A stretch of 64,000 nucleotides of DNA, taken from positions 10,248 through 74,247 of the forward strand of contig CAYIYK010000003.1 of NCBI GenBank assembly GCA_964367745.1. The letters are read 5' to 3'. The DNA comes from an uncultured Candidatus Saccharibacteria bacterium. Its GTDB lineage: Bacteria; Patescibacteriota; Minisyncoccia; Phycocordibacterales; PALSA-1337. The position numbers and the translations under genes were made by a program. The notes beneath the pieces are model-generated. The model was not told where the DNA came from. It searched no databases and saw only the letters and a program-made list of their open reading frames with translations. This document shows, piece by piece, positions 3,011 through 58,015 of this stretch. Numbering within the stretch: position 1 is the first letter of the stretch; every line of letters starts with the position of its first letter.

Positions 3011-3124
3011 AAATTAATAATATTATTTCTACTAGTGGAGACATTTTACCTTTTTAGCAAGGTTAAAAAAAGGGGAAAATAACTTTTTTTATAGATAAGA
3101 GACAGAAATTTAAAAATGTAAATA

Positions 3125-3580: not shown

Positions 3581-3649
3581 GTATATTATTATCCCCTTTT
3601 AATTATTTTTCATCAAGATGACTAAAATGAAAAAAGATATGTTAATATT

Positions 3650-12889: not shown

Positions 12890-14791
12890 ATGGAAAACAC
12901 AAAAACAAATACAAACACAACAGCAAATACGAATGCGAACACAAATACAACTGCAAGTACAAACACGCATGCAGGAACTGGTCATGCCAGAGGTTCACAT
13001 TCAGGTCATAGTCCTAGACGACCCGTATCTAGATCACATGGAATGAGACCAGCTCGTCCACCTGATGCTACACAAATGCATAAAAAAGTTGAGGACACTG
13101 TCCCGGCTTTGGCTCCAAACTCTATCCGTATAATTCCGCTTGGAGGTGTGGAGGAAATTGGTAAGAACATGACTATGGTTGAATATGGAAACGATATAAT
13201 CATTATCGATATAGGTTTCCAATTCAAAGATGAGAATACTCCTGGAATCGATTATATTCTTCCGAACACAAAGTATCTTGAAGAAAGAAAGGATAAAATA
13301 AGAGCTGTGATAATAACTCACGGTCACCTAGACCACATAGGTGGTATTCCTTATGTAATGCCAAGAATTGGTAATCCACCACTATATACAAGAATGCTTA
13401 CTTCAGTAATGGTGAAAAAGCGTCAAGAAGAATTTACTCATGTTCCACCTCTAGATATAAAAATAGTGGAAAAAGACGAAACAATATCATTGGGTGCTTT
13501 GAAAGTGAAATTCTTCGCTGTAACTCACACTATTCCAGATGCTATGGGAGTTGTTATACAAACTCCATTTGGTTCAGTAGTACACACCGGTGACCTAAAA
13601 CTAGATCACGTAGAAGGAATACCAACTGAAGCAGAAGAAGCTGAATACGATAGGGTTTTCAAGAATGAAAAAGTATTACTTCTAATGGCTGATTCTACAA
13701 ACGTAGAAAATCCTGGTTTCTCAATGCCAGAAAAAACAGTTCATAAAAATATTGAAGAAATAATCAAGAATACAAAAGGTAGATTGATCATTGCAACATT
13801 CGCTTCCCTACTAGAAAGAATGCTAAAGATTATAGAATTCTCAGAAAAATATGGAAAGAAAGTGGTTGTGGAAGGACGAAGTATGAAAACAAATATCGAG
13901 ATTTGTATGAATCTTGGTCTTTTGAAACCTAAAAAAGATACTTTGATCACAGTTGAAGAAATAGATAACTTCCCTCCTGAGAGAATCGTAGTTCTAGCAA
14001 CTGGGGCTCAAGGCGATGAATTCGCAGCGATGATGAGAATGTCTAATAAGACTCACAAATATATTAAGATAAATAAAAGAGATACTATTCTTCTTTCTTC
14101 ATCTATCGTTCCAGGGAATGAAAGAGCAGTTCAAAAACTAAAAGACAATCTTTCAAGACAAGGAGCTAGTATTATTCACTACAGAATTGCTGATGTTCAC
14201 TCTTCAGGACATGCAAACCATGATGAAACAGCTTGGATACATAAGAAAATAAATGCCAAGTTCTTCATACCAGTTCACGGTTATCACTATATGTTGAGAG
14301 TGCACGGTGAAATAGCAAAAGAAACAAATGGACTAACTGAAGATCAAATAGTAATCCCTGACAATGGTTCTATCATCGAGATACAAGATGGTGGTGCAAA
14401 GATAGTTAAAATAAAAGAAAAGGCACCATCTGGTATCGTTATGGTTGATGGATTCTCAGTTGGAGATATACAGGATGTTGTTATACGTGATAGACAAATG
14501 CTTGCTCAAGACGGAATCTTCATTGTCTTTGCAATTATAAATTCTCAAACAGGTAAACTAAAGAAATCACCGGATATTATATCTAGAGGATTCGTTTATC
14601 TAAGAGAATCACAAGAACTTCTACATCACACAAGAATAATAATCAAAAATACAATTGATGAATCTACAAAAGGAATGAATCCTATAAACATAGACTTCGT
14701 CAAAACAAGTATTAGTGATAATGTAAGTAAATTCCTACTTCAAAAGACTGCTAAAAGACCTATAGTTATCCCAGTATTACTGACTATTTAA
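12890..14791 (+). CDS. rnj: Ribonuclease J (metallo-beta-lactamase / beta-CASP) with an N-terminal Thr/Asn-repeat disordered extension of about 75 aa
   Basis: IIPLGGVEEIGKNMTMVEYGNDIIIIDIGFQFKDENTPGIDYILP...AVIITHGHLDHIGGIPYV..., with the beta-CASP and C-terminal domains present. The N-terminus is TNTNTTANTNANTNTTASTNT. Confidence 0.9.
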   Translation: MENTKTNTNTTANTNANTNTTASTNTHAGTGHARGSHSGHSPRRPVSRSHGMRPARPPDATQMHKKVEDTVPALAPNSIRIIPLGGVEEIGKNMTMVEYGNDIIIIDIGFQFKDENTPGIDYILPNTKYLEERKDKIRAVIITHGHLDHIGGIPYVMPRIGNPPLYTRMLTSVMVKKRQEEFTHVPPLDIKIVEKDETISLGALKVKFFAVTHTIPDAMGVVIQTPFGSVVHTGDLKLDHVEGIPTEAEEAEYDRVFKNEKVLLLMADSTNVENPGFSMPEKTVHKNIEEIIKNTKGRLIIATFASLLERMLKIIEFSEKYGKKVVVEGRSMKTNIEICMNLGLLKPKKDTLITVEEIDNFPPERIVVLATGAQGDEFAAMMRMSNKTHKYIKINKRDTILLSSSIVPGNERAVQKLKDNLSRQGASIIHYRIADVHSSGHANHDETAWIHKKINAKFFIPVHGYHYMLRVHGEIAKETNGLTEDQIVIPDNGSIIEIQDGGAKIVKIKEKAPSGIVMVDGFSVGDIQDVVIRDRQMLAQDGIFIVFAIINSQTGKLKKSPDIISRGFVYLRESQELLHHTRIIIKNTIDESTKGMNPINIDFVKTSISDNVSKFLLQKTAKRPIVIPVLLTI

Positions 14792-22992: not shown

Positions 22993-23940
22993 CTATTGAA
23001 ATTTCTTTAATTTATTGGCTATAAATATATCAGTATCTCTTCTAGATTCATAAGTCATACCTCCTGTATGTGGAGCGATGATTACATTTGAATATTCTTT
23101 TGCAAACTTCACTAATGGATGATTCTTGCAACTATTTTTTGTAAATAGAATCTCACCATCTAGAACGTCAGCTGTATAACCGGCAATCTTTTTTTGCTTT
23201 ATCATAGTCATCAAATCACCTTCATGAACTATTTTGCCTCTTGAAGTATTTATAAGATACGCAGTTTTCTTCATAAGACTCATAGTCTTTTTATTGAAAA
23301 GGAATTCTGTTTCTGGATTCAAATGTACGTGTATAGAAATAAAATCACTTTGTTTTATAAGCTCTTCGAAACTAACTTTTTTCCAATTTAGATTTGATGA
23401 TTCAACTTTTGGATCAGTGAATAGAACTTTCATACCCAAAGCCTCTCCATATCTTGCCATCCATTTTCCAAGTCTACCAAGTCCAACAACTCCCAATGTC
23501 TGACCATTCAGTGAATGCCCTTTGAACTTTTCTCTATTCCATTCCCCCTTTAGAACTGATTGAGTTGAACTAGGAATATGTCTTGAAGAAGATATGAGTA
23601 ATCCCAAAGCTAGTTCAGCAGTGCCAGTAATAGTATTTAGGAAATCATCTTCACCCTTTAGACTTAGAACTTTTATACCCTTTTCCTCAGCGTATTTTAA
23701 ATCGATATGATCCAAACCAGTTGTTGCGGTAACAAGGAACTTTAGATTTTTAGCTTTTGATAGGACTTCACTATTAAAGTTCAATCCCAAACCACAAACT
23801 ACTACATCATATTTTTCTATCTTTTTTAATAGTTCTTGATTTGTAGGTATAACATAATCAACCTTACCTAGAATGTTTAGAATCTTTTTTGCTTCAGGGT
23901 CGAAATCTTTACCGATTGTATTTAGTATTTTGTAGGCCAT
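22993..23940 (-). CDS. D-isomer-specific 2-hydroxyacid dehydrogenase (NAD-binding)
   Basis: GVVGLGRLGKWMARYGEALGMKVLFTD is the Rossmann motif, and the catalytic region is R...E...H (NTSRGKIVHEGDL...APHTGG). Confidence 0.7.
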   Translation of the reverse strand: MAYKILNTIGKDFDPEAKKILNILGKVDYVIPTNQELLKKIEKYDVVVCGLGLNFNSEVLSKAKNLKFLVTATTGLDHIDLKYAEEKGIKVLSLKGEDDFLNTITGTAELALGLLISSSRHIPSSTQSVLKGEWNREKFKGHSLNGQTLGVVGLGRLGKWMARYGEALGMKVLFTDPKVESSNLNWKKVSFEELIKQSDFISIHVHLNPETEFLFNKKTMSLMKKTAYLINTSRGKIVHEGDLMTMIKQKKIAGYTADVLDGEILFTKNSCKNHPLVKFAKEYSNVIIAPHTGGMTYESRRDTDIFIANKLKKFQ

Positions 23941-23978: not shown

Positions 23979-24422
23979 TTAAACCTTCGGCACCTTTATT
24001 ATAACCAACCTAGCTTTCGTAGAAGTCTTATGTTGATGTGGCTCTCCAGCAGGAATCCATAACCAATCTCCAGGTTTCATCACAACTTCTGTTCCACCCT
24101 TTATTTCTTTTGCTTTCCATTCCCTATCATCTATACTCCCATCAGCATTCTTTTTTACCCAAGGGTCTACCATTTCTCCTCCATAGATAAAGATAACTTC
24201 TCCTTCAAGACAAAACCATAGATCAGCTTCATGCTTGTGTATCTCTGCTTCATTTGAAATATTTATATCCTCCAATATATTCATAGGAACTTTATTCAAA
24301 GCAGAAAAAGCTTTTAGAGGTTCCAAAAGTTTTTTTGTTGGCGTGTCGGCACTAGGACTTGATAGAGTACTATCGATTAAATCTTTACTGATAAAAGCAC
24401 AATTTGATTTATTATTTTCCAT
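23979..24422 (-). CDS. Cupin-domain protein
   Basis: 147 aa. The beta-barrel motif FCLEGEVIFIYGGE...PGDWLWIPAGEPHQH is cupin-2-like. Confidence 0.4.
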   Translation of the reverse strand: MENNKSNCAFISKDLIDSTLSSPSADTPTKKLLEPLKAFSALNKVPMNILEDINISNEAEIHKHEADLWFCLEGEVIFIYGGEMVDPWVKKNADGSIDDREWKAKEIKGGTEVVMKPGDWLWIPAGEPHQHKTSTKARLVIIKVPKV

Positions 24423-24431: not shown

Positions 24432-26312
24432 TTAAAATTTAAATCCTTTTTTCTTTAATTCTTTTAACATGTACTCTGTGATAATCCAATCAAGTGGATA
24501 GTCTATATCTATAGATCTCTCTTTTGGTACTATATACCCTGCAATCTTATCTCCATATAACCTCTCTTCTTTCATAATCAAATCTCTTCTCATACAATAT
24601 ATTGCTGCACTTCTCTTGTATGCTACAGGTAGATCTTGTCTTCTTGTACCTTCTACTTCAGGAACAGAATATGCACTGATGAAGTCACCTTCTAATTTTT
24701 TAATCTTAATTGGATTTACATTACTTGGTACTTCAACTATTGATACTGCACTATCTGCTTTTGTATCTATAAGTTTTTGAATTGTTCCATCGATATCGTC
24801 TATAGTTCTAAAAGGTGAAGTTGGCTGAAGAATAACTACATAGTCGATAGTGATATTATTTTTCTTTTCATAAAAATCTATTGCATGTTGCATTACAGGA
24901 AGATGTGGAGTTGAATCTAGAGCCAATTCTTTTGGTCTCATAAAAGGTACATCTGCACCATACTTCTTACACACATCGGCAATCTCTTTGTCATCTGTTG
25001 AAACGATAAGATGATTTATCAATTTACTTTTCTTTGCAGCATCGATTGTATATGCAATAAGAGGTTTATTGCCAAGTTTCTTTATATTCTTACCCGGAAT
25101 ACCTTTTGACCCTCCGCGAGCTGTAATAACGCCAAGGACGTTTGGAGTTCTGTATTCCCTATCTACATGTTCTTCTGTAAGCGGTTCAAATTTCTTTATA
25201 TCTTTTATTATTTTTTTATCCAAAATATCATGGAAAAGATTCGAGAAAATTCCATTTAGATGAAGTCTTGGTCTCATAGCGTAAACCATATCACTCGTGA
25301 TTATTGTTCCAGCTTTAATATCTCTTGAAGCAACGAGTGTTTTGTTGAAATAAGGTCTAAACTTATTTTGTGCACCTTCCAATTCTTTTTCCTTTTGACC
25401 GTAGAAAATATTTGTATCTATTTTCTTATATTCATTTTTCTTAATACCAGAGACCAATTGTTTCATTTCTTCTGGAGTTACTGAAGCTTTATGGTCTGAA
25501 CCCCAAAGGCCTCGGTCTAGAGAAAAGTGTTTCTCTATAACCTGCGCACCCATTTTTACTGCAGCTAAAGGAATAGTATTATCTCCAACTGAATGATCAG
25601 AAAAACCGATGATCGCTTGAGGGTATTTTTCTCTAAAATATTCTATAGTAGAAAGGTTAAAAGCTTCTGGAGGACATGGATATTCACTAACGCAATATAG
25701 AATAATAATTGGTGACCCACGCTTTGTTATATAGTCAACAACGTCATCCAACTCTTTGTGACTAACCATTCCTGTTGAAATGATTATTGGTTTTTGTGTC
25801 TTTGTAATAAAGTCCAAAAGAACATGATCCTGAACATCACCAGAACCTACTTTCCAGAAAGGTACATCTAGATTCTCAAGCTTAACCGCTGCCATTCTAG
25901 ACATCGGAGTTGAGAAGAATATAATTCCCTTTTTTTCTGAATATCTTTTTATCTCTTTGAAGAATTCTATAGGTGCTTCTTCAGTATTTCTTTTAACCCA
26001 AGAATATCTATCACTGCCTTTGAAGTGCGGAGAAACTACATTTATATTTGCTTGTTCATCTTCAACTTCATGAGTTTGAAATTTCACAGCATGTGCACCA
26101 GCTTTTACTGCTTCGTCGATAAGCTTTTTTGCATTTTTAATATAGACTTTTAGAGGTTGAGACTCTTGTGTTTGTATAAAATTCTTACCGATTTCAGCAA
26201 TAACAAAAACTTTATCTTTTGATATGATCTTAGAGATAGCGTGAGGTTTCACTATTTTTGAATTTTTGTTCTTACTGGCTTTAGAAGATTTAACAGACTT
26301 TTTTGTTTTCAT
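24432..26312 (-). CDS. Bifunctional fusion: N-acylneuraminate (nonulosonic acid) synthase NeuB with SAF domain, plus CMP-N-acylneuraminate cytidylyltransferase NeuA
   Basis: N-terminal half: VFVIAEIGKNF...AVKFQTH...IIILYCVSEYPCPPEAFNLSTI...GFSDHSVGDNTIPLAAVKMGAQVIEKHFSLD, then an SAF domain (LVASRDIKAGTIITSDMV). C-terminal ~230 aa: LGVITARGGSKGIPGKNIKKLGNKPLIAYTIDAA...LIVSTDDKEIADVCKKYGADVPFMRPKELALDST, the NeuA/CMP-Kdo-synthase-like fold. The first ~25 aa are Lys-rich. Confidence 0.75.
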   Translation of the reverse strand: MKTKKSVKSSKASKNKNSKIVKPHAISKIISKDKVFVIAEIGKNFIQTQESQPLKVYIKNAKKLIDEAVKAGAHAVKFQTHEVEDEQANINVVSPHFKGSDRYSWVKRNTEEAPIEFFKEIKRYSEKKGIIFFSTPMSRMAAVKLENLDVPFWKVGSGDVQDHVLLDFITKTQKPIIISTGMVSHKELDDVVDYITKRGSPIIILYCVSEYPCPPEAFNLSTIEYFREKYPQAIIGFSDHSVGDNTIPLAAVKMGAQVIEKHFSLDRGLWGSDHKASVTPEEMKQLVSGIKKNEYKKIDTNIFYGQKEKELEGAQNKFRPYFNKTLVASRDIKAGTIITSDMVYAMRPRLHLNGIFSNLFHDILDKKIIKDIKKFEPLTEEHVDREYRTPNVLGVITARGGSKGIPGKNIKKLGNKPLIAYTIDAAKKSKLINHLIVSTDDKEIADVCKKYGADVPFMRPKELALDSTPHLPVMQHAIDFYEKKNNITIDYVVILQPTSPFRTIDDIDGTIQKLIDTKADSAVSIVEVPSNVNPIKIKKLEGDFISAYSVPEVEGTRRQDLPVAYKRSAAIYCMRRDLIMKEERLYGDKIAGYIVPKERSIDIDYPLDWIITEYMLKELKKKGFKF

Positions 26313-26408
26313 ATGTTATATCCTATGCTATTTAAAAATTTTTGCAACAAAAAAAATCCACCCAGTAAAACCAGGTGGAAATTGTGTTGAGTGTTCAGTA
26401 CTCGAAGA

Positions 26409-27347
26409 TCAAAGCCTGCGAGCGGTGACCACAACCGACGGGTGGTATGCGGTAAAGTTGAGGAGATTCTGGTCTGCCTCAAAAACGCTACGGATTCCAA
26501 TACCAACAATCTTGAGCTTGTCCTCAATCGGAAGCTTGTCGAGCGGTTCCCAACGGCACCAAGTGGCCCAGGCATTGCGAATGAAATCGACGATTCGACT
26601 CCCAACAACAGGAACGAGGGTTTCATTCACACGGAAGATCTCGAAACCATTTTGCTCGAGAGCAGACTTGAGATCAACAAGCGAGAATGCCTTTGCTTTG
26701 GGTGCCCAGAGATTTTCGCGAGTGAAATCAGGATACTTTGACCGAACATAATTGTAAGCTGCATCGTGCGCAATCCTATAAAGCGGATGCGAGAGTTCGG
26801 TTGTGATCTGATCCGGCCCCGGCTCAGACTTTGACCGGAAATCGTGCAAATTGCACTTCCAATCCGAATAATTGGACGGACCGAAGTCAAAACTGAGAGT
26901 TCCACGAACCTTGAGGCAAGAACTGATTGCTTTCAAGGAAGCATCGAGGGTATCCCGCAAAAGATGAAACATCTGACAACAGACAGCGGCGTCATGAAGA
27001 CCTACAACATGCCGATCCAGAAATTCCGCTTTCATTGTGTAAGCATTCACCCTCGGATTACCCATCAAATTGAGGAGAAGGAAATGCATCATGCTTTCAT
27101 TCGGCTCAACAGCCGAAACGAGCGCCTTCGTCCTCTTGAGAATAACTGCTGTACTGACACCAGTGCCGGCGCCAATCTCCAACACTGAATTGATTCCATT
27201 TTTGTTGGCTTGAATCGCCTCACTAACAACGAATTCAGCCATTTCAGTGTAGTATTTGTCACGACCATTGAAGGCCGAGTATGCTGCGCCGACATTCCCT
27301 TCGAAGAGTTTCGAACCGAGGATTGCACTAACATTACTTGTACTCAT
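26409..27347 (-). CDS. Class I SAM-dependent methyltransferase of unknown substrate, in a ~1-kb tract of anomalous GC (~50%)
   Basis: 312 aa. Motif I is VLEIGAGTGVST. The DNA of this gene is visibly GC-rich against a ~30% background, which produces many spurious overlapping ORFs in the six-frame track. Confidence 0.55.
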   Translation of the reverse strand: MSTSNVSAILGSKLFEGNVGAAYSAFNGRDKYYTEMAEFVVSEAIQANKNGINSVLEIGAGTGVSTAVILKRTKALVSAVEPNESMMHFLLLNLMGNPRVNAYTMKAEFLDRHVVGLHDAAVCCQMFHLLRDTLDASLKAISSCLKVRGTLSFDFGPSNYSDWKCNLHDFRSKSEPGPDQITTELSHPLYRIAHDAAYNYVRSKYPDFTRENLWAPKAKAFSLVDLKSALEQNGFEIFRVNETLVPVVGSRIVDFIRNAWATWCRWEPLDKLPIEDKLKIVGIGIRSVFEADQNLLNFTAYHPSVVVTARRL

Positions 27348-27523
27348 TTTTTTAAGAACTGCATCATGACTTTATTATCATGATTTTCGTTTAATCTATA
27401 ACATATTATTGTAAATTTAGCAATAGTACGATATTTAAATATTAAACTATAGAAAATAATTGACGTAATACTTTTTTAATGATATTGTATATTAAATTTA
27501 AACAAACAGTTCATTAAAAAAAT

Positions 27524-28477
27524 ATGACAGCAAAAAATGTTGGAAATTGGCAAAAATGGGCCTTCTTGGAAGGAATAACAAGGACCTTATCAAGGACTCT
27601 ACAAAAAGTTGTTGGTTCCGTATCTAACAACTGGGAGAATACCCTACTAGCTGCCGGCATAATCGGTTTTGTTCAAGTTCTGTCAGCTGTAATCATTACA
27701 AGAAAGACGAAAGAAAAACTTCTGTGTGATCCAGCAGGAATCATCGGCTGTTTGATTTTTGGTCTTATAGCTCTAGTATGTACTGTATTAGGCTTCGCAA
27801 CTTTCCTTTATGGAGGAGATATTACTGTTAGTACTTTTATCATTGCCCTGTCCATCATTCCAAGTATGATAATCGACATCGTCTTCTTCAACTACAAATC
27901 TAGTCGTAGAGAATGGATTGGGATTTTTGTGGCGGTTATAGCTGGTTGGGCAGTTCTAGACTTCCCAAACTTAGCTAGCATGCTTAAGTTGCCTATGTGG
28001 GTAGGCCTTTCATTCATCACCATGATCCTTGTGGCAATAAATCAAGGAATCACACAATCAATCAAAGATATTTCCCCGATGTTCAAAAACTTCTGGGGTG
28101 GTATGGTGGCACTAATACTGTCACCAGTTATCATGATCGTGATTGGCAAAGGTGGATTCTTACTCAGTTTCCCAGATAATAAAGTACTATGGTTTACCTC
28201 AGCTATGATTGGGATCATAGTGATAGCCATATGGTCTTTCAACCTTCTGAGCTACAAGGACGGTGCGAGTATCGCATTAAAAAAACTTGTAGTAAGTAGT
28301 ATTTACTTTATCAGTACCACGTTTCTTGGAAGCATCGTATTTAACGAAGCAATGACTGCTGGGAAAATTATTGCAATCCCTCTTTTTATTATTTCATACT
28401 TCCTTATGAGTAAGGAAGCCTACAATTTCGTACTAGCGAAGCGGATACCGAAGTGGATAAAGTGGATATTGAAGTGA
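27524..28477 (+). CDS. Polytopic membrane protein (about 10 TM helices), uncharacterised; possibly a transporter
   Basis: 317 aa, almost entirely hydrophobic helices. It sits between the methyltransferase and neuC on the opposite strand. Confidence 0.35.
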   Translation: MTAKNVGNWQKWAFLEGITRTLSRTLQKVVGSVSNNWENTLLAAGIIGFVQVLSAVIITRKTKEKLLCDPAGIIGCLIFGLIALVCTVLGFATFLYGGDITVSTFIIALSIIPSMIIDIVFFNYKSSRREWIGIFVAVIAGWAVLDFPNLASMLKLPMWVGLSFITMILVAINQGITQSIKDISPMFKNFWGGMVALILSPVIMIVIGKGGFLLSFPDNKVLWFTSAMIGIIVIAIWSFNLLSYKDGASIALKKLVVSSIYFISTTFLGSIVFNEAMTAGKIIAIPLFIISYFLMSKEAYNFVLAKRIPKWIKWILK

Positions 28478-28507
28478 TGTCTAAGTAAATACAGTAATCT
28501 CTCAAAG

Positions 28508-28537
28508 CCCTCACGTAAAAAGCGTGGGGGTCTTTTT
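28508..28537 (+). terminator. Rho-independent terminator
   Basis: A ccctcacg ... cgtggggg stem (8 bp, one G-U pair) followed by TCTTTTT. Confidence 0.5.
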
Positions 28538-29693
28538 ATTCAACAAAAGTCTTTTGAGTATAAAGAGGTACAGTAGCTATAACCTCTGCAATCTTTTTAC
28601 TTGTACCTTCTGCAAAATATAGACTTGATGATTCGTATCTGCCTTTTTTAACTTGTTTCTCTATTGCTTTCTTTATAGCTTTAATATCATGGTCTACAGT
28701 TACTACATTTTCTGCACTCAATCTTTTGAATTGTCTATTACCAATATTCACCACAGGCAAACCCATAAAAGAAGATTCCTTTATTCCAGCTGATGAATTC
28801 CCTATCAAACATAGACTGTTATTCAATAGCCAAATAAAATCCTTTGGACCCATATATCGCATGAAGCGTATTTTATGTCCTTTAACTTCATCTTTAAAAA
28901 TTCGAAGCTCATGTGATATATCTTCTGCACCGGCATCAGCATTTGGCCAAAACCAAAGTGTTGGAATCTTTAGACTATGTACAGCATCAAGGATTTTCTT
29001 TGTATTTTCATGTACATGCTTCACATCCATAATATCAGGATGATACATAACTATTAGATATCCTTTCTTTAGATCAAAAAGGGCCCCACTTCCTGTTTTC
29101 TTTATATCGAATTTATGTTTATTTTTTGCTAATTTTTGTACAACTTCTATTTCTGGACTACCAAAATTGAAAACGTGAGATTCTCTTTCTCCAAGTCTCA
29201 ATACTCTTTTTCTTGCTGGTTCATTTGTTGTAAAGTGAATATGAGAAAGTTTTGTGATAGCGTGTCTTACACTTTCATCTATTGATCCAGATACATCACC
29301 ACCTTCTATGTGTGCGATAGGTATAGATAAATATGCAGCTGCAATTGTAGCTGATAGAACTTCAAATCTATCACCTCTTACCACAACGACATCAGGTTTA
29401 ATCTGATTAAAAAGTGTAGTGAATTCTATTATTCCTAGTCCTGTTGTTTTTGCTTTTACGATTGTATCATTCCCTTCTAGATTGAAATGTAGTTCGTATA
29501 GCTTGTTATATCCGTCTTCCGTCAAAAGTTTTCTTATATCAGCAAGTTTTGAAGTATAACGAGACAATAAAGCTGTACCTCCAACTATTATATGTAGGTC
29601 AATATCCTTTCTTTTCTTTAGTTCTTCTAGAATAAGAAAGTTACGACTATAGTGTATGAAACTTGTAATAACAAAGCAGACTTTTCTCTTCAT
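28536..29693 (-). CDS. neuC: UDP-N-acetylglucosamine 2-epimerase (NeuC-type, hydrolysing)
   Basis: 385 aa. VVVRGDRFEVLSATIAAAYLSIPIAHIEGGDVSGSIDESVRHAITKLSHIHFTT is the conserved epimerase core, and the GT-B-like two-domain layout is present. Confidence 0.75.
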   Translation of the reverse strand: MKRKVCFVITSFIHYSRNFLILEELKKRKDIDLHIIVGGTALLSRYTSKLADIRKLLTEDGYNKLYELHFNLEGNDTIVKAKTTGLGIIEFTTLFNQIKPDVVVVRGDRFEVLSATIAAAYLSIPIAHIEGGDVSGSIDESVRHAITKLSHIHFTTNEPARKRVLRLGERESHVFNFGSPEIEVVQKLAKNKHKFDIKKTGSGALFDLKKGYLIVMYHPDIMDVKHVHENTKKILDAVHSLKIPTLWFWPNADAGAEDISHELRIFKDEVKGHKIRFMRYMGPKDFIWLLNNSLCLIGNSSAGIKESSFMGLPVVNIGNRQFKRLSAENVVTVDHDIKAIKKAIEKQVKKGRYESSSLYFAEGTSKKIAEVIATVPLYTQKTFVE

Positions 29694-30681: not shown

Positions 30682-32040
30682 TTATTTAATTAAATTAATT
30701 ATATAATCTGCAATTCTCTTTCCTGATAAACCGTCTGTATAACTTGTCTGTTCTTTTACCAAGATCTCTCTTTCTTTACTCTTTACTGATGGATCATCAA
30801 GATATTTATTTATTGAATCCAATAACTCTTGTTTGCTATTAACTAGATCGATAGCACCGGTCTTTAATGCATTCTTATAATGCCAAGTTCTATAGTATTG
30901 TACAGGAGATTTCAATAATTTTGGAATTATATTTATTTCAAAATTTATATTTATTACAGGTTTATTAAAAATACTTGCATCGATACTAATACTTGAAGCA
31001 TAGCAAACCAAAACAGACATATGATAAAGAGTATCCTGCAAATGTTCTAGATCTGCTTTATTCATATCCCAATCTACACCTCTTTTTGTACCAAAACGTA
31101 TACCAGGCTTATCATATTTTAGATCTGGTCTCTTTGATATTTCTTCTTCATCAACAAAGTCATTTGGTTGGAATCGGACCAATAATTCACATTCGTATTT
31201 CAATTCATTTGAGTGAATAGTTTTTTGCAAAAGGTCGATTATATCCCAATCTGCAGAACTGAACGCTCTCCCCATTGGAGCGTATACTATCAATTTCTTA
31301 TCACTTGATATTTTTATTTTATTAAAAAATTCTTCTCTTAAAATAGGTTTCCTTGTGTAGAAGAAATCGTATTGTGGCAGACCGCTGATAAAAATATCTT
31401 CCGATTTCATTTCATTCAAATCAATCATCTCCTTTTTTACGATATCGTTAAAAACTATAGCTTTATCAGGTAATAATCTTAAAATGCATCTTGATGTAAC
31501 TTTGTCCCAAGAGTTTATATAGCCTATCGTTTTTATTTTTCTTTTTTTTGCTTCTCTTAAAAGATTGATTTCTATTTCTTCAAATAGATGTGCGGTGAAA
31601 ACAAGATCTGGTGAATATTTATCAAAATATTCACTATATGTATTGTCTTTTATTAAAATAAAATCCAAATATCGTACGATTCTTCTTATCACAGGCCAAG
31701 CCAAAATATAGTTCGATACTTTACCAAAATAGTATCCGAAAAATCTTCCTTCATATTCACTTACCATTTTCCTTTTTAAATCTGTTGTTTCAGTTCTAAG
31801 TAAAGTGAATTTCATCTTTGAGAAAAACCCATCAAACATTGGTACAGATTTTTGCTCGACAAATTCAAATACTATTCTTGGATCATTGAATTCATTTTTA
31901 TAATAATCAACTTTTTGTTGTGATTTTGTAAATAGAACAATTTTAATATCTTTATTTAAAAGAAGATTTTCCAAAATCGGTGTTCGTAGAATATTTTTTA
32001 CTTCTACACCCTCAAAGATTGTTACAAATATTGTCTTCAT
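30682..32040 (-). CDS. TagF-like / 'HP-motif' GT-B family protein (CDP-alditol-phosphotransferase-like or CMP-sugar-transferase-like); paralog A
   Basis: 452 aa. The shared core with the paralogs is IKTIGYINSWDKVTSR, IVFNDIVK, GLPQYDFFY, LLVRFQPNDF, KPVININ. Here the His of the HP-type motif is replaced (RFQP). Confidence 0.4.
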   Translation of the reverse strand: MKTIFVTIFEGVEVKNILRTPILENLLLNKDIKIVLFTKSQQKVDYYKNEFNDPRIVFEFVEQKSVPMFDGFFSKMKFTLLRTETTDLKRKMVSEYEGRFFGYYFGKVSNYILAWPVIRRIVRYLDFILIKDNTYSEYFDKYSPDLVFTAHLFEEIEINLLREAKKRKIKTIGYINSWDKVTSRCILRLLPDKAIVFNDIVKKEMIDLNEMKSEDIFISGLPQYDFFYTRKPILREEFFNKIKISSDKKLIVYAPMGRAFSSADWDIIDLLQKTIHSNELKYECELLVRFQPNDFVDEEEISKRPDLKYDKPGIRFGTKRGVDWDMNKADLEHLQDTLYHMSVLVCYASSISIDASIFNKPVININFEINIIPKLLKSPVQYYRTWHYKNALKTGAIDLVNSKQELLDSINKYLDDPSVKSKEREILVKEQTSYTDGLSGKRIADYIINLIK

Positions 32041-33365
32041 TTATTTATTGATTCTAGTATTGCATTAAAAAGTCTTTCAGTATTTTTGCCATCCAAAAAT
32101 CCAGTTTCCATCTCTGCTAGTTTCTTTCTTTTATCTTTATCCAGACTAGGATTTTTAACGTATTCTTCTACATAGTCTTTAAATTGACGCATAGATTCAG
32201 CCAGCTTCACACCTCCACTCTCTATTACTGGAATAAAATTGTTATAATCATAATATCTTCTTATACTATCAAAATATTCCCTTTTTTCATGTCCGTCAAA
32301 ACCAAAAAGGATTATTGGTTTATCCATATATGCAGAATCCAAAACTAAAGTTGATGGTGAGCTGATAACCAATTCTGACCAGAACAATGTATGAGCAAGA
32401 TGTATATCATCATCTTTATCGATCTCTGTAATTTTTATATTATCAAATTTAGGTTTTGCTCTGTCATACATAACCTTAATATTTGGAAACTTCGGACTAT
32501 TCTCCAATTCTCTAACATAATCTCCAGGTGGAAGTCTGACTAGAAGTTGATAATCATTTGGTAAAGTCTTATCCAAAATATCTACAATATCTCTGTCTAC
32601 AGTATTTTTTCTCAAATATCGATCACCTAGAGGTATAAATAAAGCCAGCTTTTTATTCTGATCACCACCTATTTTTTCTATAAATTCTTTTCTATTTGTA
32701 AATACATTCTTTTTATAATCATCATAGTGTGGAATTCCGACAATAGATATTATTGATTCATTTATTCCTTGAAGATCTTTTGCTTCATCTTTAATGATAT
32801 TGTTCCAAACAAAAAGTCTATTCGGAATCGTTCGAATGATACCTTTTGAAGTAAGATTGTCCCAAGAACGAACCATACCGATAGTCTTTATACCTGAGGA
32901 ATTACCTTCATTTAAAATCGCTATATCGATTTCGCTTTGAATATCGGTAGCGAATACGCAATCAGGTTTATACTGCTCAAATAATTTATCAAATTTTTTA
33001 TTTTTATAACTTACTCTTTCCAAGAATCTTACGAATTTATGCCCGATTTTATTTGATAATAAATAAGTTAAATACATTCCACTCCCTTTCATCTCTGTCT
33101 TCCTTTTTATATAAAGAGTTTTTGTATTTAATGCTGTTAGCGAAAGATACTTTAATAAATTTTCTCTTTTAGCATTTTTAAATTCTATTCCTTCAACAAC
33201 TACCCCATCTCTTTCAAAACTTTCTTTAAAAAAACTCTCTTTATTTTTTGGAGCAATTATTACAACTTTTATTTCATTCTTAACAAAGAGATCCAAAATT
33301 CCAGATGAAAGAATATTTCTTGATATTAGAGGATGGCAACTAGTTATAAAAATTGTCTTTTTCAT
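32037..33365 (-). CDS. TagF-like / 'HP-motif' GT-B family protein; paralog B
   Basis: 442 aa. IKTIGMVRSWDNLTSKG, FVWNNIIK, GIPHYDDY, LLVRLPPGDY, KPIILFG. The His is also replaced here (RLPP). Confidence 0.4.
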   Translation of the reverse strand: MKKTIFITSCHPLISRNILSSGILDLFVKNEIKVVIIAPKNKESFFKESFERDGVVVEGIEFKNAKRENLLKYLSLTALNTKTLYIKRKTEMKGSGMYLTYLLSNKIGHKFVRFLERVSYKNKKFDKLFEQYKPDCVFATDIQSEIDIAILNEGNSSGIKTIGMVRSWDNLTSKGIIRTIPNRLFVWNNIIKDEAKDLQGINESIISIVGIPHYDDYKKNVFTNRKEFIEKIGGDQNKKLALFIPLGDRYLRKNTVDRDIVDILDKTLPNDYQLLVRLPPGDYVRELENSPKFPNIKVMYDRAKPKFDNIKITEIDKDDDIHLAHTLFWSELVISSPSTLVLDSAYMDKPIILFGFDGHEKREYFDSIRRYYDYNNFIPVIESGGVKLAESMRQFKDYVEEYVKNPSLDKDKRKKLAEMETGFLDGKNTERLFNAILESINK

Positions 33366-34312
33366 TATCTTTTAAGGAATTGCTGTAGACGTACTGTAAG
33401 TAAATATCTTAAATAAATATAATATTTGTTTATTGATAATAAAGTAAAAATATAATTACCCTTACCTATTGTTAAATCCTTGAAGGGGGTTTTATTCAAT
33501 CTTTTAGCCACAATGCGAATATGTACTTTTGGAATTCCCTGCATGACCTTCTTTTTTGTATATTCATTAGCTTCAAAGAAAAGGATTTCGAATCCAGCTG
33601 ATACAATGAAATCTCTCAAAACCTCAGGTGTATACATATAGACATGGTCGATCTTTACACTATTTTCATACTTTCCTGCTTTTTGTAATTGCTGTCGAAA
33701 ATTCATAACTTCAACTACAAGAAGTCCATTATCAAAAAGAGACTCGTGAGCCCATTTGAAAAAATATCTAGGATCCAAATAGTGATTTAAAGCTTGAGTA
33801 CTGACTATAACTGCGAATTTTTCTTTTTTATTATGATCTTCGATTAGAGCATGATAAGTCTTTATTCCTTGAGAATTCGCATAATCTGATTCAATCTTTG
33901 ATGGCTCAAGACCAATTACTTCTCTATTCAAAAATCTTTTCATTCCTTCCAAAACTCCTCCGACACCAGAACCGACTTCCATTATTGAGCCTTTTACTTT
34001 TAGATATGGTGATATAAGCTCACCCAAGAATTTGCCGTGTCCGATGGTTGATTCGAACAATTTCTTACAATCAAAATCTGAACCTGCTTCGCCATTGTTT
34101 ATAGTTTTTTGTCTGTATTCTTCTTCATAATAGAATTTGTAACCAGACTTTGTCATTCTAGGATTTATATAAATAAGCCCGCATTTTTTACAAATAACAG
34201 AATTCAAAGCAAGACCATCAGTGCCTTTTTTTGACAGGATTTTATAATTGTTACTTAAACAGAAACTGCAAGCAATATTCTCCTTTTCAATTGTATTGTA
34301 TGGGAAAGACAT
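33365..34312 (-). CDS. Zn-ribbon SAM-dependent methyltransferase; paralog 2. The likely start is at 34312; the six-frame ORF extends to 34432.
   Basis: CSFCLS...CKKCGLIYINPRMT, then MEVGSGVGGVLEG, then IDHVYMYTPEVL. It is collinear with paralog 1. Confidence 0.55.
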   Translation of the reverse strand: MSFPYNTIEKENIACSFCLSNNYKILSKKGTDGLALNSVICKKCGLIYINPRMTKSGYKFYYEEEYRQKTINNGEAGSDFDCKKLFESTIGHGKFLGELISPYLKVKGSIMEVGSGVGGVLEGMKRFLNREVIGLEPSKIESDYANSQGIKTYHALIEDHNKKEKFAVIVSTQALNHYLDPRYFFKWAHESLFDNGLLVVEVMNFRQQLQKAGKYENSVKIDHVYMYTPEVLRDFIVSAGFEILFFEANEYTKKKVMQGIPKVHIRIVAKRLNKTPFKDLTIGKGNYIFTLLSINKYYIYLRYLLTVRLQQFLKR

Positions 34313-34383
34313 TTTATGATAAACAAGTATATCACAACAAAATATTGCTTCAATTAAGATTAAATTCTGATATACTGTCTCAA

Positions 34384-35520
34384 ATGGAAATAAAAATCGA
34401 TAAGGTCGCAAATCTAAGTGGCTGGAAATCATATACAGTAGACAATACTAATGATTTTATAACTATAAATGATTGCTTGTGTTGCAAAGGAAAACTAAAA
34501 GTTACAATTCGAAATAAAAATCAAACAGACGATACAAAGATTGATATTGGAACTTGTGTAAATTGTGGTTTTACAACCTATATTAATAAACCAAGTCACA
34601 AATGGATTATCGATTTCTACAATTCAACTTGGAATAAAGAAGAGGGTGAAGAGAATAATTTTGTAAATAAAGATCTACAATCTAGCAAACTAACAATAGC
34701 CCTAGAAAAAATAAATTTCCCAAAGAATGGTTCAATATGTGAAATCGGCACAGGAAGAGGCGGTAACTTTGCTGCGCTTATAAATAATGGTTATAACAAT
34801 CTTATTGGTGTAGAGAATTCAATACACAGAGCTGATACAGTGAGTAAAGCTCTAAATGATGTTCCTATATACACAGGAGGTTTTGAAGAAGAAAAAGTAC
34901 AAAATGCTCTAGCGAAACATGGAAGTTTCGATTTGATATACACTGCTCATGTAATGGAACATATTTATAATCCTGAAGAGACTATTGAACTATGTTCAAA
35001 ACTTCAGAATGAAAATGGTCATTTGATAGTCGCTGTGCCGAACTTCGTAGGTGAACCTAGTATAGGTATTTCTTCTTTCCTTCCCCATTTACATTCTTTT
35101 ACAAAAGAATCGATGATAAGACTTTTGAATAATAAAGGGTATCAAGTTATAGATGATAGTTACACTACAGAGTTTGAATTGTTTCTTATTGCTCAAAAGA
35201 AAAGTAATATTAATAAAAAACTAGATAATAAGACTGATTATATAAAACCTGCTCAAGACAAATTTATTAAAGAATTAAAATTGAATGAAATTCCCCTAAA
35301 TCAGTCTGTATTCTATTTTTTCTCTAAGAAAAATTATTCAGTATCTGGATATAAAATACTAAATAAAATATCAATAATAAAAACAATTCAAGCTATGTTT
35401 TTCAAATTCATTCAAAGAAAAAAAGGTTATAGATCTTTCGTATTTACTTTGATGAATAAAGATAAAAATCAACCAATTGTATTGAATTGGAAGAAATCTA
35501 TTATTCTTTTCTATAAATAA
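34384..35520 (+). CDS. Zn-ribbon SAM-dependent methyltransferase; paralog 3, divergent. The likely start is at 34384; the six-frame ORF begins at 34231.
   Basis: CLCCKG...CVNCGFTTYINKPSHKW, then EIGTGRGGNFAALI. The architecture matches paralogs 1 and 2. Confidence 0.5.
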   Translation: MEIKIDKVANLSGWKSYTVDNTNDFITINDCLCCKGKLKVTIRNKNQTDDTKIDIGTCVNCGFTTYINKPSHKWIIDFYNSTWNKEEGEENNFVNKDLQSSKLTIALEKINFPKNGSICEIGTGRGGNFAALINNGYNNLIGVENSIHRADTVSKALNDVPIYTGGFEEEKVQNALAKHGSFDLIYTAHVMEHIYNPEETIELCSKLQNENGHLIVAVPNFVGEPSIGISSFLPHLHSFTKESMIRLLNNKGYQVIDDSYTTEFELFLIAQKKSNINKKLDNKTDYIKPAQDKFIKELKLNEIPLNQSVFYFFSKKNYSVSGYKILNKISIIKTIQAMFFKFIQRKKGYRSFVFTLMNKDKNQPIVLNWKKSIILFYK

Positions 35521-36471
35521 TTAGAAATTATAGAATTTCGGCTCCTTCTTTATCTTATTTGAAACTGCGATTTTAGCTTCATTAGATAGTCCATTTGTAT
35601 CTAGTGATTTCGGATATTTATATAGTATAGGCCAAACAGATGCTGGAGAAGTGTATACACTTGTATACATGAATCTATTACTTGTCTTTGCATGACCGCC
35701 TCTATGCAAACCGCTTGTATCGCAGAATATTATTGTTCCAGCTTTACCTGTACACACAATTTTGTCTTCATTAGGAATTAAGGAATCCTGGCTTGCACTA
35801 CCTCGTGGTGGCTGTTGTGGTGATATATGTCTCCATTTACCGAAGATATGAGACTTTTTAACATAAATAAAAGGGCCAGCATTGTCATCAACATCATTTA
35901 GATAAAGGAACACTTTTACAAGTTGTTGATCTTCAGGATCTCTGTGCCACTCTTGTGATGCGTAACTTCTCATTCCTTCAGGCATAGGTACGGTCACTTG
36001 GAATCTCCAATCAAAAAACTTCATATACATTTTCATATATGCATTCACTGTTCCGAGAATTTGATTACTCAGACTCATTTTGGTGAGAGGATGTTTTAGA
36101 TCCAATATTCTCTCTCCATTCCAAAGATCGATCAAAAAGAAATTCTTACTTTTCAACTTGTCACCATCCAATAGATTACCTCTAGAGTCGTATCTTTCTT
36201 TAACGTCTTTATCATTCCATCGATTCTGTGCAATCTTCTCCAATTCAGCATATACGTGCTTTGGAAAAAGTTTATCGATATGACTTATTGCAATACCGTC
36301 TCTATTTAGATCTTCGACGATTTTCTTCTGTTCATCTGACAATTTATTTTCACTCTTTTTATAAAGTCTAATACTTGAGATATTTAGTAGAGTCCAGACA
36401 AATCGACTTGCTCTGATGCGATGATAAAAACGTGCGATTATACCTATAACACTTTTTATTATTTTCTTCAT
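35521..36471 (-). CDS. Phytanoyl-CoA-dioxygenase (PhyH)-family Fe(II)/2-oxoglutarate oxygenase
   Basis: WHRDPED (HxD) ... GTIIFCDTSGLHRGG (distal His). The size and spacing fit PhyH-like hydroxylases. Confidence 0.55.
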   Translation of the reverse strand: MKKIIKSVIGIIARFYHRIRASRFVWTLLNISSIRLYKKSENKLSDEQKKIVEDLNRDGIAISHIDKLFPKHVYAELEKIAQNRWNDKDVKERYDSRGNLLDGDKLKSKNFFLIDLWNGERILDLKHPLTKMSLSNQILGTVNAYMKMYMKFFDWRFQVTVPMPEGMRSYASQEWHRDPEDQQLVKVFLYLNDVDDNAGPFIYVKKSHIFGKWRHISPQQPPRGSASQDSLIPNEDKIVCTGKAGTIIFCDTSGLHRGGHAKTSNRFMYTSVYTSPASVWPILYKYPKSLDTNGLSNEAKIAVSNKIKKEPKFYNF

Positions 36472-36478
36472 AAATAAA

Positions 36479-37873
36479 TTAAATAATTTTTCCTAAAAAA
36501 TCGACATTTCTCTTATAAGACAAACCGTCTCTAAAGAAAATAAAATCATTGAATACTTTCTCTTGTTGCTTCTTTTTTACATCGTGATTTTTCAAACAAA
36601 TATTAACATGTTCAACGATATTATCGAAACTCTTTGAGAGAAAAACTGCATCAGCATCTACTATAGGTTTATAGTGACGGAAATTGTATGCTCTATGATA
36701 CTTTTCTGGATAATCTATATTTACAACTGGTTTTCCGAAGATAAAAGATTCAAGGGTCATTGTTGAAACGTAGTTTATAACTACATCAGAATATTTTAGA
36801 GTTAATTTTAGATTCAAAATATCATCTTCATGTATTTCAATTCTTGTACCCATTTCTTGTGAAAGTAACTTGCCTGGATATTCAACATGGAGATTTGGAA
36901 TTTTACTATCAATATATACTTTGAACTTATCAAACTCTTCTTTTGGATGCATTCGCACTAGAATATTGGGTTTACCATCGAATTTGCCTTGATCACGAGC
37001 TTTCAATAGTTCACCAAGAAGAATATCTTCATCAGGGTAATTCCCCTTTGTAACTGTAGTTATAAGTATTGTTTTTTCTTTTGGATTCAATCCTTTACTC
37101 AAAAGGAACGCTTCTCTAGACTGTTCACTTGGATTGTTTACAGAATAAGAGTCGAAACGCATTGTACCTGAGACAAATACATTATCTTCTGAATATCCAT
37201 ATTCTTTAACTGCGGTATTTTTTATTATTTTATTCCAAACGATTAGATAATCTGGTCTTCTAAAATGCATTCCTCCATTGTGAAGATTGTCCCAACTGAA
37301 GTTTACTGCAGCAGTCTTTATACCAAACTTCTTAGCATATATTATTGCTTCAGCATCAGGATGACTGAAGCCAGGAGTTGCTGTTAGAAACATAACTGGG
37401 TTGTATTCTTTAATCTTTTCTTCAAGAGCCTTTGATCTTGGTATAAAAATTTTCTCAAGTTTAGTAAATAAATCATTTGTCCAAAAAGATGCAGGGGCAA
37501 TGTAAGAAAAATACTTCAAAAATCTTCTTCTCCAATCCTTCATCCCCTTTTCTTTATTTCTTACAACCACTGGTTCAAAATCGTATTTACGGATTATTGA
37601 ATATCTAAAATATTTACCAAATAGATTCCAAAATCCTGGATTTTGTAATTTCCAAGGAACATAAGTCACATTTTCTGATTTAAAATATGGTTTATTATCT
37701 TCACAAAAAGCTTGTGGGGACATAAATACGACTACTTTGTATTTTGTTGATAAATACTTTATATAATCTGTACGCAAAAAATCTGATGAGTAAACAAAGT
37801 TCGAAATAAAAAGAAATATTGTTTTCATAGAAAGGTATTGTAGCATATATGTTATAATCCTTATTATTACCAC
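36479..37873 (-). CDS. TagF-like / 'HP-motif' GT-B family protein; paralog C. It is the only one of the three that retains the His-Pro motif.
   Basis: 464 aa. IKTAAVNFSWDNLHNGG, IVWNKIIK, LVRMHPKEEF, KPVVNIDYP. Confidence 0.4.
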   Translation of the reverse strand: MVIIRIITYMLQYLSMKTIFLFISNFVYSSDFLRTDYIKYLSTKYKVVVFMSPQAFCEDNKPYFKSENVTYVPWKLQNPGFWNLFGKYFRYSIIRKYDFEPVVVRNKEKGMKDWRRRFLKYFSYIAPASFWTNDLFTKLEKIFIPRSKALEEKIKEYNPVMFLTATPGFSHPDAEAIIYAKKFGIKTAAVNFSWDNLHNGGMHFRRPDYLIVWNKIIKNTAVKEYGYSEDNVFVSGTMRFDSYSVNNPSEQSREAFLLSKGLNPKEKTILITTVTKGNYPDEDILLGELLKARDQGKFDGKPNILVRMHPKEEFDKFKVYIDSKIPNLHVEYPGKLLSQEMGTRIEIHEDDILNLKLTLKYSDVVINYVSTMTLESFIFGKPVVNIDYPEKYHRAYNFRHYKPIVDADAVFLSKSFDNIVEHVNICLKNHDVKKKQQEKVFNDFIFFRDGLSYKRNVDFLGKII

Positions 37874-55823: not shown

Positions 55824-55875
55824 ATGGAGTTCTATATGTTTAATATTTTACCATGGTTTTTTATATTAAGTATAG

Positions 55876-57441: not shown

Positions 57442-57471
57442 CAAAAAACACCCTATGGGTGTTTTTTGATG
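57439..57471 (-). terminator. Perfect 15-bp inverted repeat with a 3-nt loop between pilA and the downstream gene. On the minus-strand transcript it is a hairpin followed by a U-rich tract whose 3' arm contains the downstream gene's AUG.
   Basis: catcaaaaaacaccc-tat-gggtgttttttgatg on the plus strand, about 25 nt after the pilA stop codon. The minus-strand RNA reads 5'-caucaaaaaacaccc-aua-ggguguuuuuugAUG-uauaauuuauuuauguuuuc. Confidence 0.55.
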
Positions 57472-57495
57472 TAACCGTATTGTTACCAGATTGTA

Positions 57496-57975: not shown

Positions 57976-58015
57976 AACGAAATAATTAACTTAATAAATA
58001 AAACTAATAATTCAA

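Follow-up and report, generated by a model that had tools for sequence, protein, structure and literature searches.

A GC-rich methyltransferase gene in a Saccharibacteria nonulosonic-acid cluster is probably a long-standing component exchanged as an allele cassette

The stretch of DNA analysed here (64,000 nucleotides, hereafter the window) stems from an uncultured Candidatus Saccharibacteria bacterium (GenBank assembly GCA_964367745.1, contig CAYIYK010000003.1, positions 10,248 to 74,247 of the forward strand). Much of it, from 20.7 to 54 kb, is a large surface-glycan region with many glycosyltransferases, a Wzx-type flippase and a Wzy_C-TPR protein. Among the genes of this region is one for a predicted methyltransferase (MT), which is far richer in GC than its surroundings and was taken for a recent horizontal acquisition in the original prediction. 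Five or six other methyltransferase genes are found in the same region. Comparison with related loci suggests that MT is an old gene of a nonulosonic-acid cluster, that its alleles are exchanged between strains, and that its GC-rich state is stable. The features at the locus are the following.

22993..23940, minus strand: D-2-hydroxyacid dehydrogenase (Pfam), recurring with MT in other clusters
23979..24422, minus strand: small cupin (Pfam), recurring with MT in other clusters
24432..26312, minus strand: NeuB-SAF-NeuA fusion (Pfam NeuB 4e-66, SAF, CTP_transf_3 1e-27), directly downstream of MT, GC 0.333
26349..26379, minus strand: intrinsic-terminator-like hairpin plus T8 (terminator scan; 10-bp stem at 26357-26379, 3-nt loop), about 30 nt past the MT stop codon
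26409..27347, minus strand: MT coding sequence, predicted 312-aa class I methyltransferase, GC 0.483, poor in third-position A, a hypervariable allele cassette
27345..27425, minus strand: upstream anchor of 81 nt, with promoter-like region, 5' leader, ribosome-binding stretch and ATG
27395-27423, minus strand: candidate promoter, with -35 TTGCTA, 17-nt spacer and TG-extended -10 TATAGA (TG-n-TATAGA)
27524..28477, plus strand: EamA/DMT-family membrane transporter (Pfam EamA), divergent from MT and lying between MT and NeuC
28507..28531, plus strand: terminator-like hairpin past EamA, where EamA and NeuC converge
28536..29693, minus strand: NeuC-type UDP-GlcNAc 2-epimerase (Pfam Epimerase_2 4e-68)

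The NeuB-SAF-NeuA fusion joins a nonulosonate synthase to a CMP-nonulosonate synthetase and has host-like GC. MT does lie inside the sialic-acid module, as had been proposed, but not directly between the NeuB-NeuA fusion and NeuC, since the EamA gene on the plus strand intervenes before NeuC. The small hairpin that had been noticed beside the gene was recovered as well, and its position just past the stop codon and its run of eight T residues are terminator-like. The element at 27395-27423 may serve as the promoter of MT. A consensus promoter scan did not list it, and its -10 hexamer lacks the final T.

The compositional anomaly is evident in a sliding profile. GC content steps up from 0.32-0.35 on the NeuB side to 0.45-0.49 at about 26300-27350, and drops to 0.27-0.31 past about 27350, in the next intergenic region. 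The step coincides with the single open reading frame (ORF) of MT, which is the 940-nt tract of highest GC in the whole 64 kb (0.483 against a window mean of 0.331, robust z 4.6). With greedy gene calls, its GC content at third codon positions (GC3) ranks first among 56 genes (0.508 against a mean of 0.241, z 5.7), and the shifts at the other two positions are smaller (GC1 z 2.2, GC2 z 1.5). The deviation is thus real, and it is as abrupt and as strictly one gene wide as originally described. The raw tetranucleotide distance of the tract is also the maximum of the window (z 6.7). Once base composition is corrected for, the tract stands out only mildly by its oligonucleotides (z -2.4), indicating that the anomaly is mainly one of base composition.

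Codon usage in MT is the inverse of that of the host and, as had been claimed, foreign to the rest of the window. CTC, CGG and CCG are enriched 9- to 100-fold (57.5 against 4.3, 12.8 against 0.1 and 28.8 against 3.1 per thousand, respectively), and ATA, TTA and AGA, which account for 46, 18 and 25 per thousand codons in the host, are absent. Six additional ORFs of at least 60 amino acids overlap the gene. Neither their frame nor their position is kept among alleles, suggesting that they are by-products of the GC content, in agreement with their earlier description as spurious. Elsewhere in the window, the second-highest GC3 (0.42; GC 0.405) was found in a 264-aa ORF at 5834-6628 (plus strand), which has no Pfam match and a central hydrophobic segment, and lies far from the glycan cluster.

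The assignment of the gene product as an S-adenosylmethionine (SAM)-dependent methyltransferase could be upheld. Three Pfam domains score above their gathering thresholds, namely Methyltransf_12 (PF08242, 31.4 bits, cut-off 30), Methyltransf_25 (PF13649, 30.8 bits, cut-off 27) and Methyltransf_11 (PF08241, 23.2 bits, cut-off 21.2). The SAM-binding motif I reads LEIGAGTG (residues 56-63). In an alignment of 11 sequences, 53 residues are invariant; they include G59, G61, G63 and E81, the acidic residue that ends strand 2. When 27 members are aligned, G63 is still invariant and E81 nearly so (at least 90%). An AlphaFold2 model (predicted local distance difference test score 85.7, predicted template modelling score 0.83) has a Rossmann-like alpha/beta fold. 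Foldseek matched this model with probability 1.0 to many class I small-molecule methyltransferases, at template modelling (TM) scores of only 0.45-0.65. The structural neighbours include 3CCF, BioC (8X8I/J), RebM (3BUS), trans-aconitate methyltransferase (2P35) and JHAMT (7EC0). Matches span carboxyl-, O-, N-, S- and C-methyltransferases alike, with no chemistry preferred.

MT shares with class I methyltransferases in general the GxGxG motif I, the acidic end of strand 2 (E81), a seven-stranded alpha/beta core and a helical lid. It differs from the solved class I structures in sequence, with identities of only 10-15%, as well as in the low TM scores given above. Its C-terminal half is marked by family-specific motifs (GPSN, D169-x-R171, ELSHPL, NLW, RNxW...RW and AYHP), which do not vary among the 11 closest members and are fully or at least 90% conserved in the 27-member alignment. 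Searches of NCBIfam and of PDB sequences returned generic domain matches only, far under the family cut-offs, and no specific curated family was reached (best NCBIfam score 31.6 bits against a cut-off of 180). Judged by its domain, motif and fold features, MT is a predicted class I SAM-dependent methyltransferase of an uncharacterised family that is restricted to the candidate phyla radiation (CPR).

Members of this family are rare. Only 11 relatives of MT were found among 5.8 billion protein clusters, and when 1.84 billion representatives were searched exhaustively by profile, about 25-30 full-length members were recovered, followed only by generic Rossmann-domain matches. Every named host belongs to the Patescibacteria/CPR, and one of them is a Saccharibacteria bin with a cluster syntenic to the window, which by itself would suggest Saccharibacteria or a near relative as the source of the window. 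A donor lineage, which the original prediction had expected a search to reveal, was not detected, as the profile searches gave only unnamed or Patescibacteria proteins. No relatives were found on viral contigs, and carriage by phages was rejected on this ground. An exact search of JGI metagenome contigs with 34 nt of the upstream anchor gave no match, and a protein-pattern scan for more alleles added only short or duplicate loci.

We compared 15 genomic contexts of the family, which are phylogenetically dependent and in several cases have short flanks (relatives of the window are designated by L numbers). EamA adjoins MT in 11 of the 15 contexts. NeuB and/or NeuA are located one to three genes away in the window, L001, L004, L007, L009, L011, L017, L019, L020 and L026. 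The cupin and 2-hydroxyacid dehydrogenase pair flanks MT in L016 and is also present in L004 and L007. Proximity to EamA and/or NeuB/NeuA/NeuC, or to the cupin and the dehydrogenase, extends to relatives with identities down to 28-37%, and the member with 28% identity sits between a NeuA-kinase-HAD phosphatase group of genes and a NeuB-cupin fusion. On this evidence, which is one of synteny, the MT family is an accessory of nonulosonic-acid clusters.

The organisation of these clusters varies. NeuB and NeuA are fused (626 aa) in the window and in L001; L004 (11079-12933) encodes them as two proteins of 376 and 240 aa. NeuB is fused to the cupin in L026 and to an AP_endonuc_2 domain in L009. 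In L026, the MT homologue (28% identity), an AAA_33 kinase and a HAD phosphatase form a GC-rich block (1274-3636, GC 0.61-0.63, GC3 0.78-0.84) in a cluster with a GC content of 0.50-0.55.

MT occupies the same site in six of the six syntenic relatives that could be recovered (L001, L004, L006, L011, L018 and L019). No empty site was found among these six, a limited sample, and the distribution that a check of presence and absence was to reveal is not patchy in this sample. The orthologues in L001, L004 and L006 are 75%, 59% and 56% identical to the window protein. They are equally GC-rich, with GC contents of 0.50, 0.54 and 0.52 in contexts of 0.31, 0.35 and 0.33, respectively, and GC3 values of 0.54-0.61 against 0.16-0.31. 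Between the window and L004 or L006, four-fold degenerate sites differ by 0.5-0.7 in every cluster gene, and the synonymous divergence (dS) by the NG86 method exceeds 2, an estimate that is unreliable near saturation. With synonymous sites saturated, composition should reflect a process that is acting currently. A rough two-state calculation (host equilibrium 0.24, observed share of GC/AT-changing substitutions) leaves 13% of an initial excess, so that even an ancestral GC3 of 1.0 would be expected to have fallen to about 0.34 by now, compared with the observed 0.51-0.61.

The excess is not confined to AT-rich hosts. In 14 of the 15 contexts, whose hosts range in GC from 0.31 to 0.59, the GC3 of MT is above that of the flanking genes, and in 10 of them it is the highest of all genes. 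In hosts of 0.53-0.59 GC it reaches 0.92-0.93. Host-like composition in close relatives, which was to refute the original prediction, was not found; host-like or partly host-like codon usage is limited to three distant members (L007, L009 and L010). At the borders of MT, no integrase, transposase, tRNA or flanking repeat was found in the 64-kb window, and an Rfam scan of the 64 kb detected no family at gathering score (no tRNA, rRNA, riboswitch or other known RNA). The claim of a recent horizontal acquisition is not supported by these comparisons. They indicate that MT is not a recent import, but probably a long-standing component of a nonulosonic-acid surface-glycan cluster. The idea of horizontal origin retains a part of its validity, as exchange does occur at the locus in the form of allele replacement between conserved anchors.

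The comparison of the window with L019, a contig of almost the same genome, illustrates this exchange. NeuB is 99.2% identical at the amino acid level and 97.5% at the nucleotide level (dS 0.116), and no difference (100% identity) is seen in the upstream intergenic region or at the start of EamA. MT, in contrast, is only 68.9% identical at the amino acid level and 72.9% at the nucleotide level (dS 1.13). Base-level alignments place the breakpoints directly behind the ATG and some 20 nt beyond the stop codon, where 97-99% identity resumes. Four alleles (window, L001, L018 and L019) share the two anchors, i.e. the 81-nt upstream segment and the terminator hairpin, with few or no differences, even though the flanking genes of L001 are 7-11% diverged. 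The upstream anchor is identical in the window, L019 and L018 and has two differences in L001, despite coding sequences that differ by 22-27%, and its core motif TTGC...TATG.TA can be aligned also in L004, L006 and L011. The hairpin is kept in L019 and L018, and in L001 a single stem change converts a G-U pair into a G-C pair. Different hairpins are present at this position in L004 and L011.

The four alleles are roughly equidistant from each other (69-75% amino acid identity), and L019 combines the closest flanks with the most distant allele. As the divergence of the alleles does not scale with that of the flanks, replacement is indicated rather than local hypermutation. The alleles are also mosaic. 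Both ends of the gene group the window with L001, the centre groups it with L018, and the splits at 96 informative sites are spatially clustered along MT (permutation p = 5e-5). A similar picture emerged independently in a second clade, in which L006 and L011 agree at 97-100% of positions across EamA and most of the intergenic region. Their identity is 50-75% from about 100 nt upstream of the MT start through the coding sequence, and reaches 91-95% by the 3' end of the gene. Sharply bounded segments and mosaicism were thus both found, and on these alignments the MT coding sequence behaves as an exchangeable allele cassette, with closely related strains differing mainly by which allele they carry.

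We propose that the ultra-conserved anchors at promoter and terminator serve as sites of homologous recombination, which would move very divergent alleles (65-75% amino acid identity) among near-identical genomes, and that recombination between alleles would add the mosaicism. As a result, strains would differ in a glycan-modifying enzyme. Exchange of cassettes that recombine homologously through conserved flanks is known from the minimal mobile elements of Neisseria and from serotype switching at capsule and O-antigen loci. The MT locus resembles these systems in that genomes are near-identical, that a bounded segment is placed between conserved flanks, and that mosaics occur. It differs from them in that a divergent allele of one gene, and not a different gene set, is exchanged, and in that the exchanged segment is uniformly GC-rich. 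Moreover, the anchors at MT are an 81-nt promoter/leader and a terminator hairpin, whereas flanking genes have this role in exchange of the Neisseria or capsule type.

Despite its variability, the gene is maintained. The ORF is intact in all alleles, and the ratio of nonsynonymous to synonymous divergence (dN/dS) is 0.18-0.27, compared with 0.02-0.06 for NeuB, NeuC and the adjacent methyltransferase. MT is still under purifying selection, but this selection is 5-10 times more relaxed than in the neighbours. In L018, an IS256-family transposase gene (459-1433, Pfam Transposase_mut) is inserted between EamA and MT, directly upstream of the TTGCTA element. L018 is the only relative with a transposase at this place, and its allele (P0003) has the lowest GC3 of the clade (0.43).

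GC-rich alleles from low-GC hosts, although mutually saturated, share a codon regime in which ATA, TTA, CTA and AGA are nearly absent, lysine is encoded by AAG more often than by AAA, and leucine most often by CTC. The shift is strand-asymmetric, as third-position A falls from about 0.40 to 0.10-0.19 and T stays at 0.21-0.36. Polarised synonymous singletons comprised 33 changes from G or C to A or T and 30 in the opposite direction, where a ratio of about 2.4:1 would be expected under decay to the host equilibrium (p = 0.002). This balanced flux fits a stationary GC3 near 0.5 and speaks against decay toward the host equilibrium. For recent polymorphism no usable spectrum was obtained, as contigs with identical MT proteins are separated by only one G>A change. 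We therefore prefer to regard the GC-rich composition, poor in A-ending codons, as a stable property of the alleles from low-GC hosts and not as a fading signature of transfer. The AT-directed mutation pressure would be countered by a fixation bias at synonymous sites, for which selection acting on the choice of codons or on the transcript is the likeliest source. Such a bias is preferred as a cause because the avoidance of A-ending codons is conserved and strand-asymmetric, and because the flux is balanced.

Taken together, the joint explanation, with an old methyltransferase gene of a nonulosonate cluster, swapped as an allele cassette and held in a stable GC-rich state preferably by a fixation bias, has a probability of roughly 0.6 in our estimate. 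The more specific statement that a gene-specific force (selection on transcript or codons, or a strong GC bias linked to recombination) keeps MT GC-rich and almost free of A-ending codons, in the face of AT-directed mutation in its hosts, for longer than synonymous saturation takes, while the gene is shuffled as a cassette, is offered only tentatively, with the odds rather against it. Several observations weigh against our reading. Apart from the limits of dS near saturation, the singleton test presupposes a star tree, and mosaic recombination confounds its outcome. When all third positions are counted, there is a mild AT-ward flux (57:41), and some decay is possible. The codon usage of L007, L009 and L010 demonstrates that the GC-rich regime is not intrinsic to the MT family. 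Furthermore, the Glyphos_transf gene at 32037..33365 is equally divergent from L001 (75% amino acid identity) yet has host-like GC, and EamA is GC-elevated yet stable, which means that divergence and GC are not tightly coupled.

Some direct causes of the high GC content could be discarded. An antisense or overlapping gene was rejected, as the stop-free antisense stretches vary in frame and position among alleles. An unusual mRNA structure was rejected because the minimum-free-energy z is only -1.16, and adenine-specific mutagenesis because the substitution spectrum is ordinary.

Among the other explanations, serial import deserves most attention, although we consider it unlikely. According to it, alleles evolve in unsampled mid- or high-GC relatives (e.g. 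Saccharibacteria with 45-60% GC) and repeatedly enter low-GC lineages by transformation and recombination, so that a GC3 of 0.5-0.6 and the avoidance of A-ending codons would be native to the donors and each allele a fairly recent immigrant. Allele replacement is indeed demonstrated, divergence within a mid-GC reservoir would leave just such a balanced flux, some members do occur in mid-GC hosts (L020, L016 and L021), and L007, L009 and L010 show that the family can adopt host composition. The cluster of L004 even contains a second, unrelated GC-rich accessory gene (13430-14560, GC 0.525). However, every sampled allele at least 56% identical to that of the window sits in a low-GC context, and none in a GC-richer one was found among the 5.8 billion clusters. 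Recombination at the anchors would need donors with near-identical AT-rich anchors, and the anchors differ between clades. The dS between the window and L001 alleles (0.69, flanks 0.37-1.2) is as in co-divergence within low-GC hosts, and the singleton flux of this pair is still 15:15. Finally, MT exceeds its neighbours in GC even where the host itself has a GC content of 0.53-0.59. Another explanation is GC-biased gene conversion at a recombination hotspot. Frequent heteroduplexes between divergent alleles, repaired with a bias toward G/C, would raise the GC content solely in the region of allelic difference, the coding sequence, and would do this in any host. Recombination and mosaicism are concentrated exactly in the GC-rich segment, the GC3 excess is seen across hosts of very different composition (logit shift 1.2-1.7 in eight loci), all three codon positions are shifted with the third shifted most, and the balanced flux is again as expected. 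The strand-asymmetric loss of third-position A is, however, not expected from a symmetric process, EamA is GC-elevated but not hypervariable, and the equally divergent Glyphos_transf gene has host-like GC. Effects of GC-biased gene conversion reported for bacteria amount to a few GC3 points, not to 27-33. We consider this explanation improbable, more so than serial import.

A single recent acquisition of a foreign methyltransferase gene, from a donor of about 50% GC into the sialic-acid module, would account for the sharp GC step of one gene and for its foreign codon usage, and the gene's own promoter-like region and terminator give it the look of a self-contained unit. It is nevertheless very improbable, given that the same site and the same GC contrast are seen in all syntenic relatives, including those with saturated synonymous sites, and that neither mobility hallmarks in the window nor a donor lineage could be detected. 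Targeted hypermutation in situ, resembling that of diversity-generating retroelements or templated by a transcript, would deplete adenines of the sense strand. CPR genomes are rich in diversity-generating retroelements, the divergence is confined to the coding sequence, its sense strand is A-poor at third positions, and a hairpin follows just downstream. Against this, neither a template repeat nor a second copy of MT was found in the 64 kb, as blastn and tblastn matched only the gene itself, and no reverse-transcriptase family was found among the 39 proteins of the window that were searched with Pfam (these include all ORFs of 120 aa or more between 18.6 and 57.4 kb, but not about 16 shorter ORFs at the window ends). 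The substitution spectrum is dominated by transitions (A>G 45, A>C 7, A>T 7), A positions do not mutate more readily than C or G positions, and allele divergence is mosaic and unscaled to that of the flanks. Hypermutation is hardly credible on these grounds. Still less credit can be given to an assembly chimera or contaminant insertion. The window is probably derived from a metagenome bin, and GC-discordant segments can be misassemblies, but the junctions are identical to the base in independent ENA, Logan, NCBI and JGI assemblies.

The same searches led us to reject three related candidates. MT is probably not the target of a diversity-generating retroelement, as there is no template repeat, no reverse transcriptase among the scanned proteins and no adenine-specific substitution. 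It is hardly an integron gene cassette, as no integrase family occurs among these proteins and the hairpin, with its 23-nt GC stem and T8, is typical of a terminator; no dedicated attC model was run. Silent donor copies in the window were rejected, as the only blastn and tblastn match was MT itself.

Horizontally acquired DNA is usually AT-richer than its host. MT has atypical GC content, atypical codon usage and abrupt borders in common with the ameliorating islands of Lawrence and Ochman. It is unlike these classical islands in being GC-richer than the host, in keeping its synteny, in lacking mobility genes, and in apparently not ameliorating despite saturated divergence.

As for function, the linkage to NeuB/NeuA/NeuC, EamA, the small cupin and the 2-hydroxyacid dehydrogenase points to a role in nonulosonate methylation. 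From this gene context, we consider methylation of the nonulosonate, of a precursor or of the glycan carrying it the most likely activity, at about even odds. A full-text literature search on nonulosonic acids in CPR, Patescibacteria or Saccharibacteria, or on methylated nonulosonates, found nothing relevant. Strain-variable enzymes that decorate nonulosonates are known in other bacteria, for example the NeuO and NeuD O-acetyltransferases of E. coli K1 and group B streptococci, and in Campylobacter flagellin N-methyl-acetimidoyl groups are added to legionaminic acid enzymatically. Like these enzymes, MT is encoded by a single modification gene in or at the NeuB/NeuA/NeuC module and varies between strains. 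MT is not homologous to them, its predicted chemistry is methyl and not acetyl transfer, and its variation arises by swapping of divergent alleles and not by phase-variable repeats or prophage carriage. Divergent alleles would change the surface epitope, or at least tolerate rapid change.

Several neighbouring genes complete the description of the region. EamA itself has a GC content of 0.394 and the third-highest GC3 of the window (0.406). It is GC-elevated in most relatives (0.36-0.52) and not hypervariable, as L006 and L011 are 97-99% identical at the nucleotide level. The Glyphos_transf-like gene at 32037..33365 (minus strand, GC 0.29), with a weak match to BFO_1060-family glycosyltransferases, is a second fast-diverging gene of the cluster; its neighbours are 92-98% identical to their L001 counterparts. 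A segment of about 2.1 kb (about 34500-36600) has no counterpart in L001. This indel adds two tailoring genes, for a Methyltransf_23 protein (34231..35520, plus strand) and a PhyH-like dioxygenase (35521..36471, minus strand). The listed start of the former overlaps the gene at 33365..34432 by about 200 nt, and the true start is probably later.

The GC-rich accessory gene of L004 (13430-14560; 376 aa, GC3 0.57) has no Pfam family, is flanked by the genes for the cupin and the 2-hydroxyacid dehydrogenase, and does not occur in the window; it is unrelated to the 376-aa gene of L006. At 53949-62507 (minus strand), the window encodes a TraG/VirD4-like coupling-protein homologue beside PilC-like T2SSF and PilB-like T2SSE proteins of type IV pilus/competence systems. 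Such machinery could take up DNA for allele exchange.

Atypical GC content is routinely read as a sign of recent horizontal transfer, and this reading fails at MT. The gene has stayed at a fixed position and GC-richer than its host through saturated divergence, which makes the locus a concrete test case for forces other than recency that hold a gene off the genomic composition. The comparison has also brought out an uncharacterised pair of methyltransferase and EamA genes that appears to be specific to Patescibacteria and tied to nonulosonic-acid clusters. If a gene-specific force is indeed responsible, MT would be among the clearest single-gene cases of a compositional island that does not ameliorate.

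The cell-surface biology of these ultra-small, episymbiotic bacteria is almost unknown. The allele differences between strains point to a surface glycan that may be under diversifying pressure, from phages or from recognition of the host bacterium. If this is true, the MT locus would mark population-level variation of the surface glycan in such organisms.

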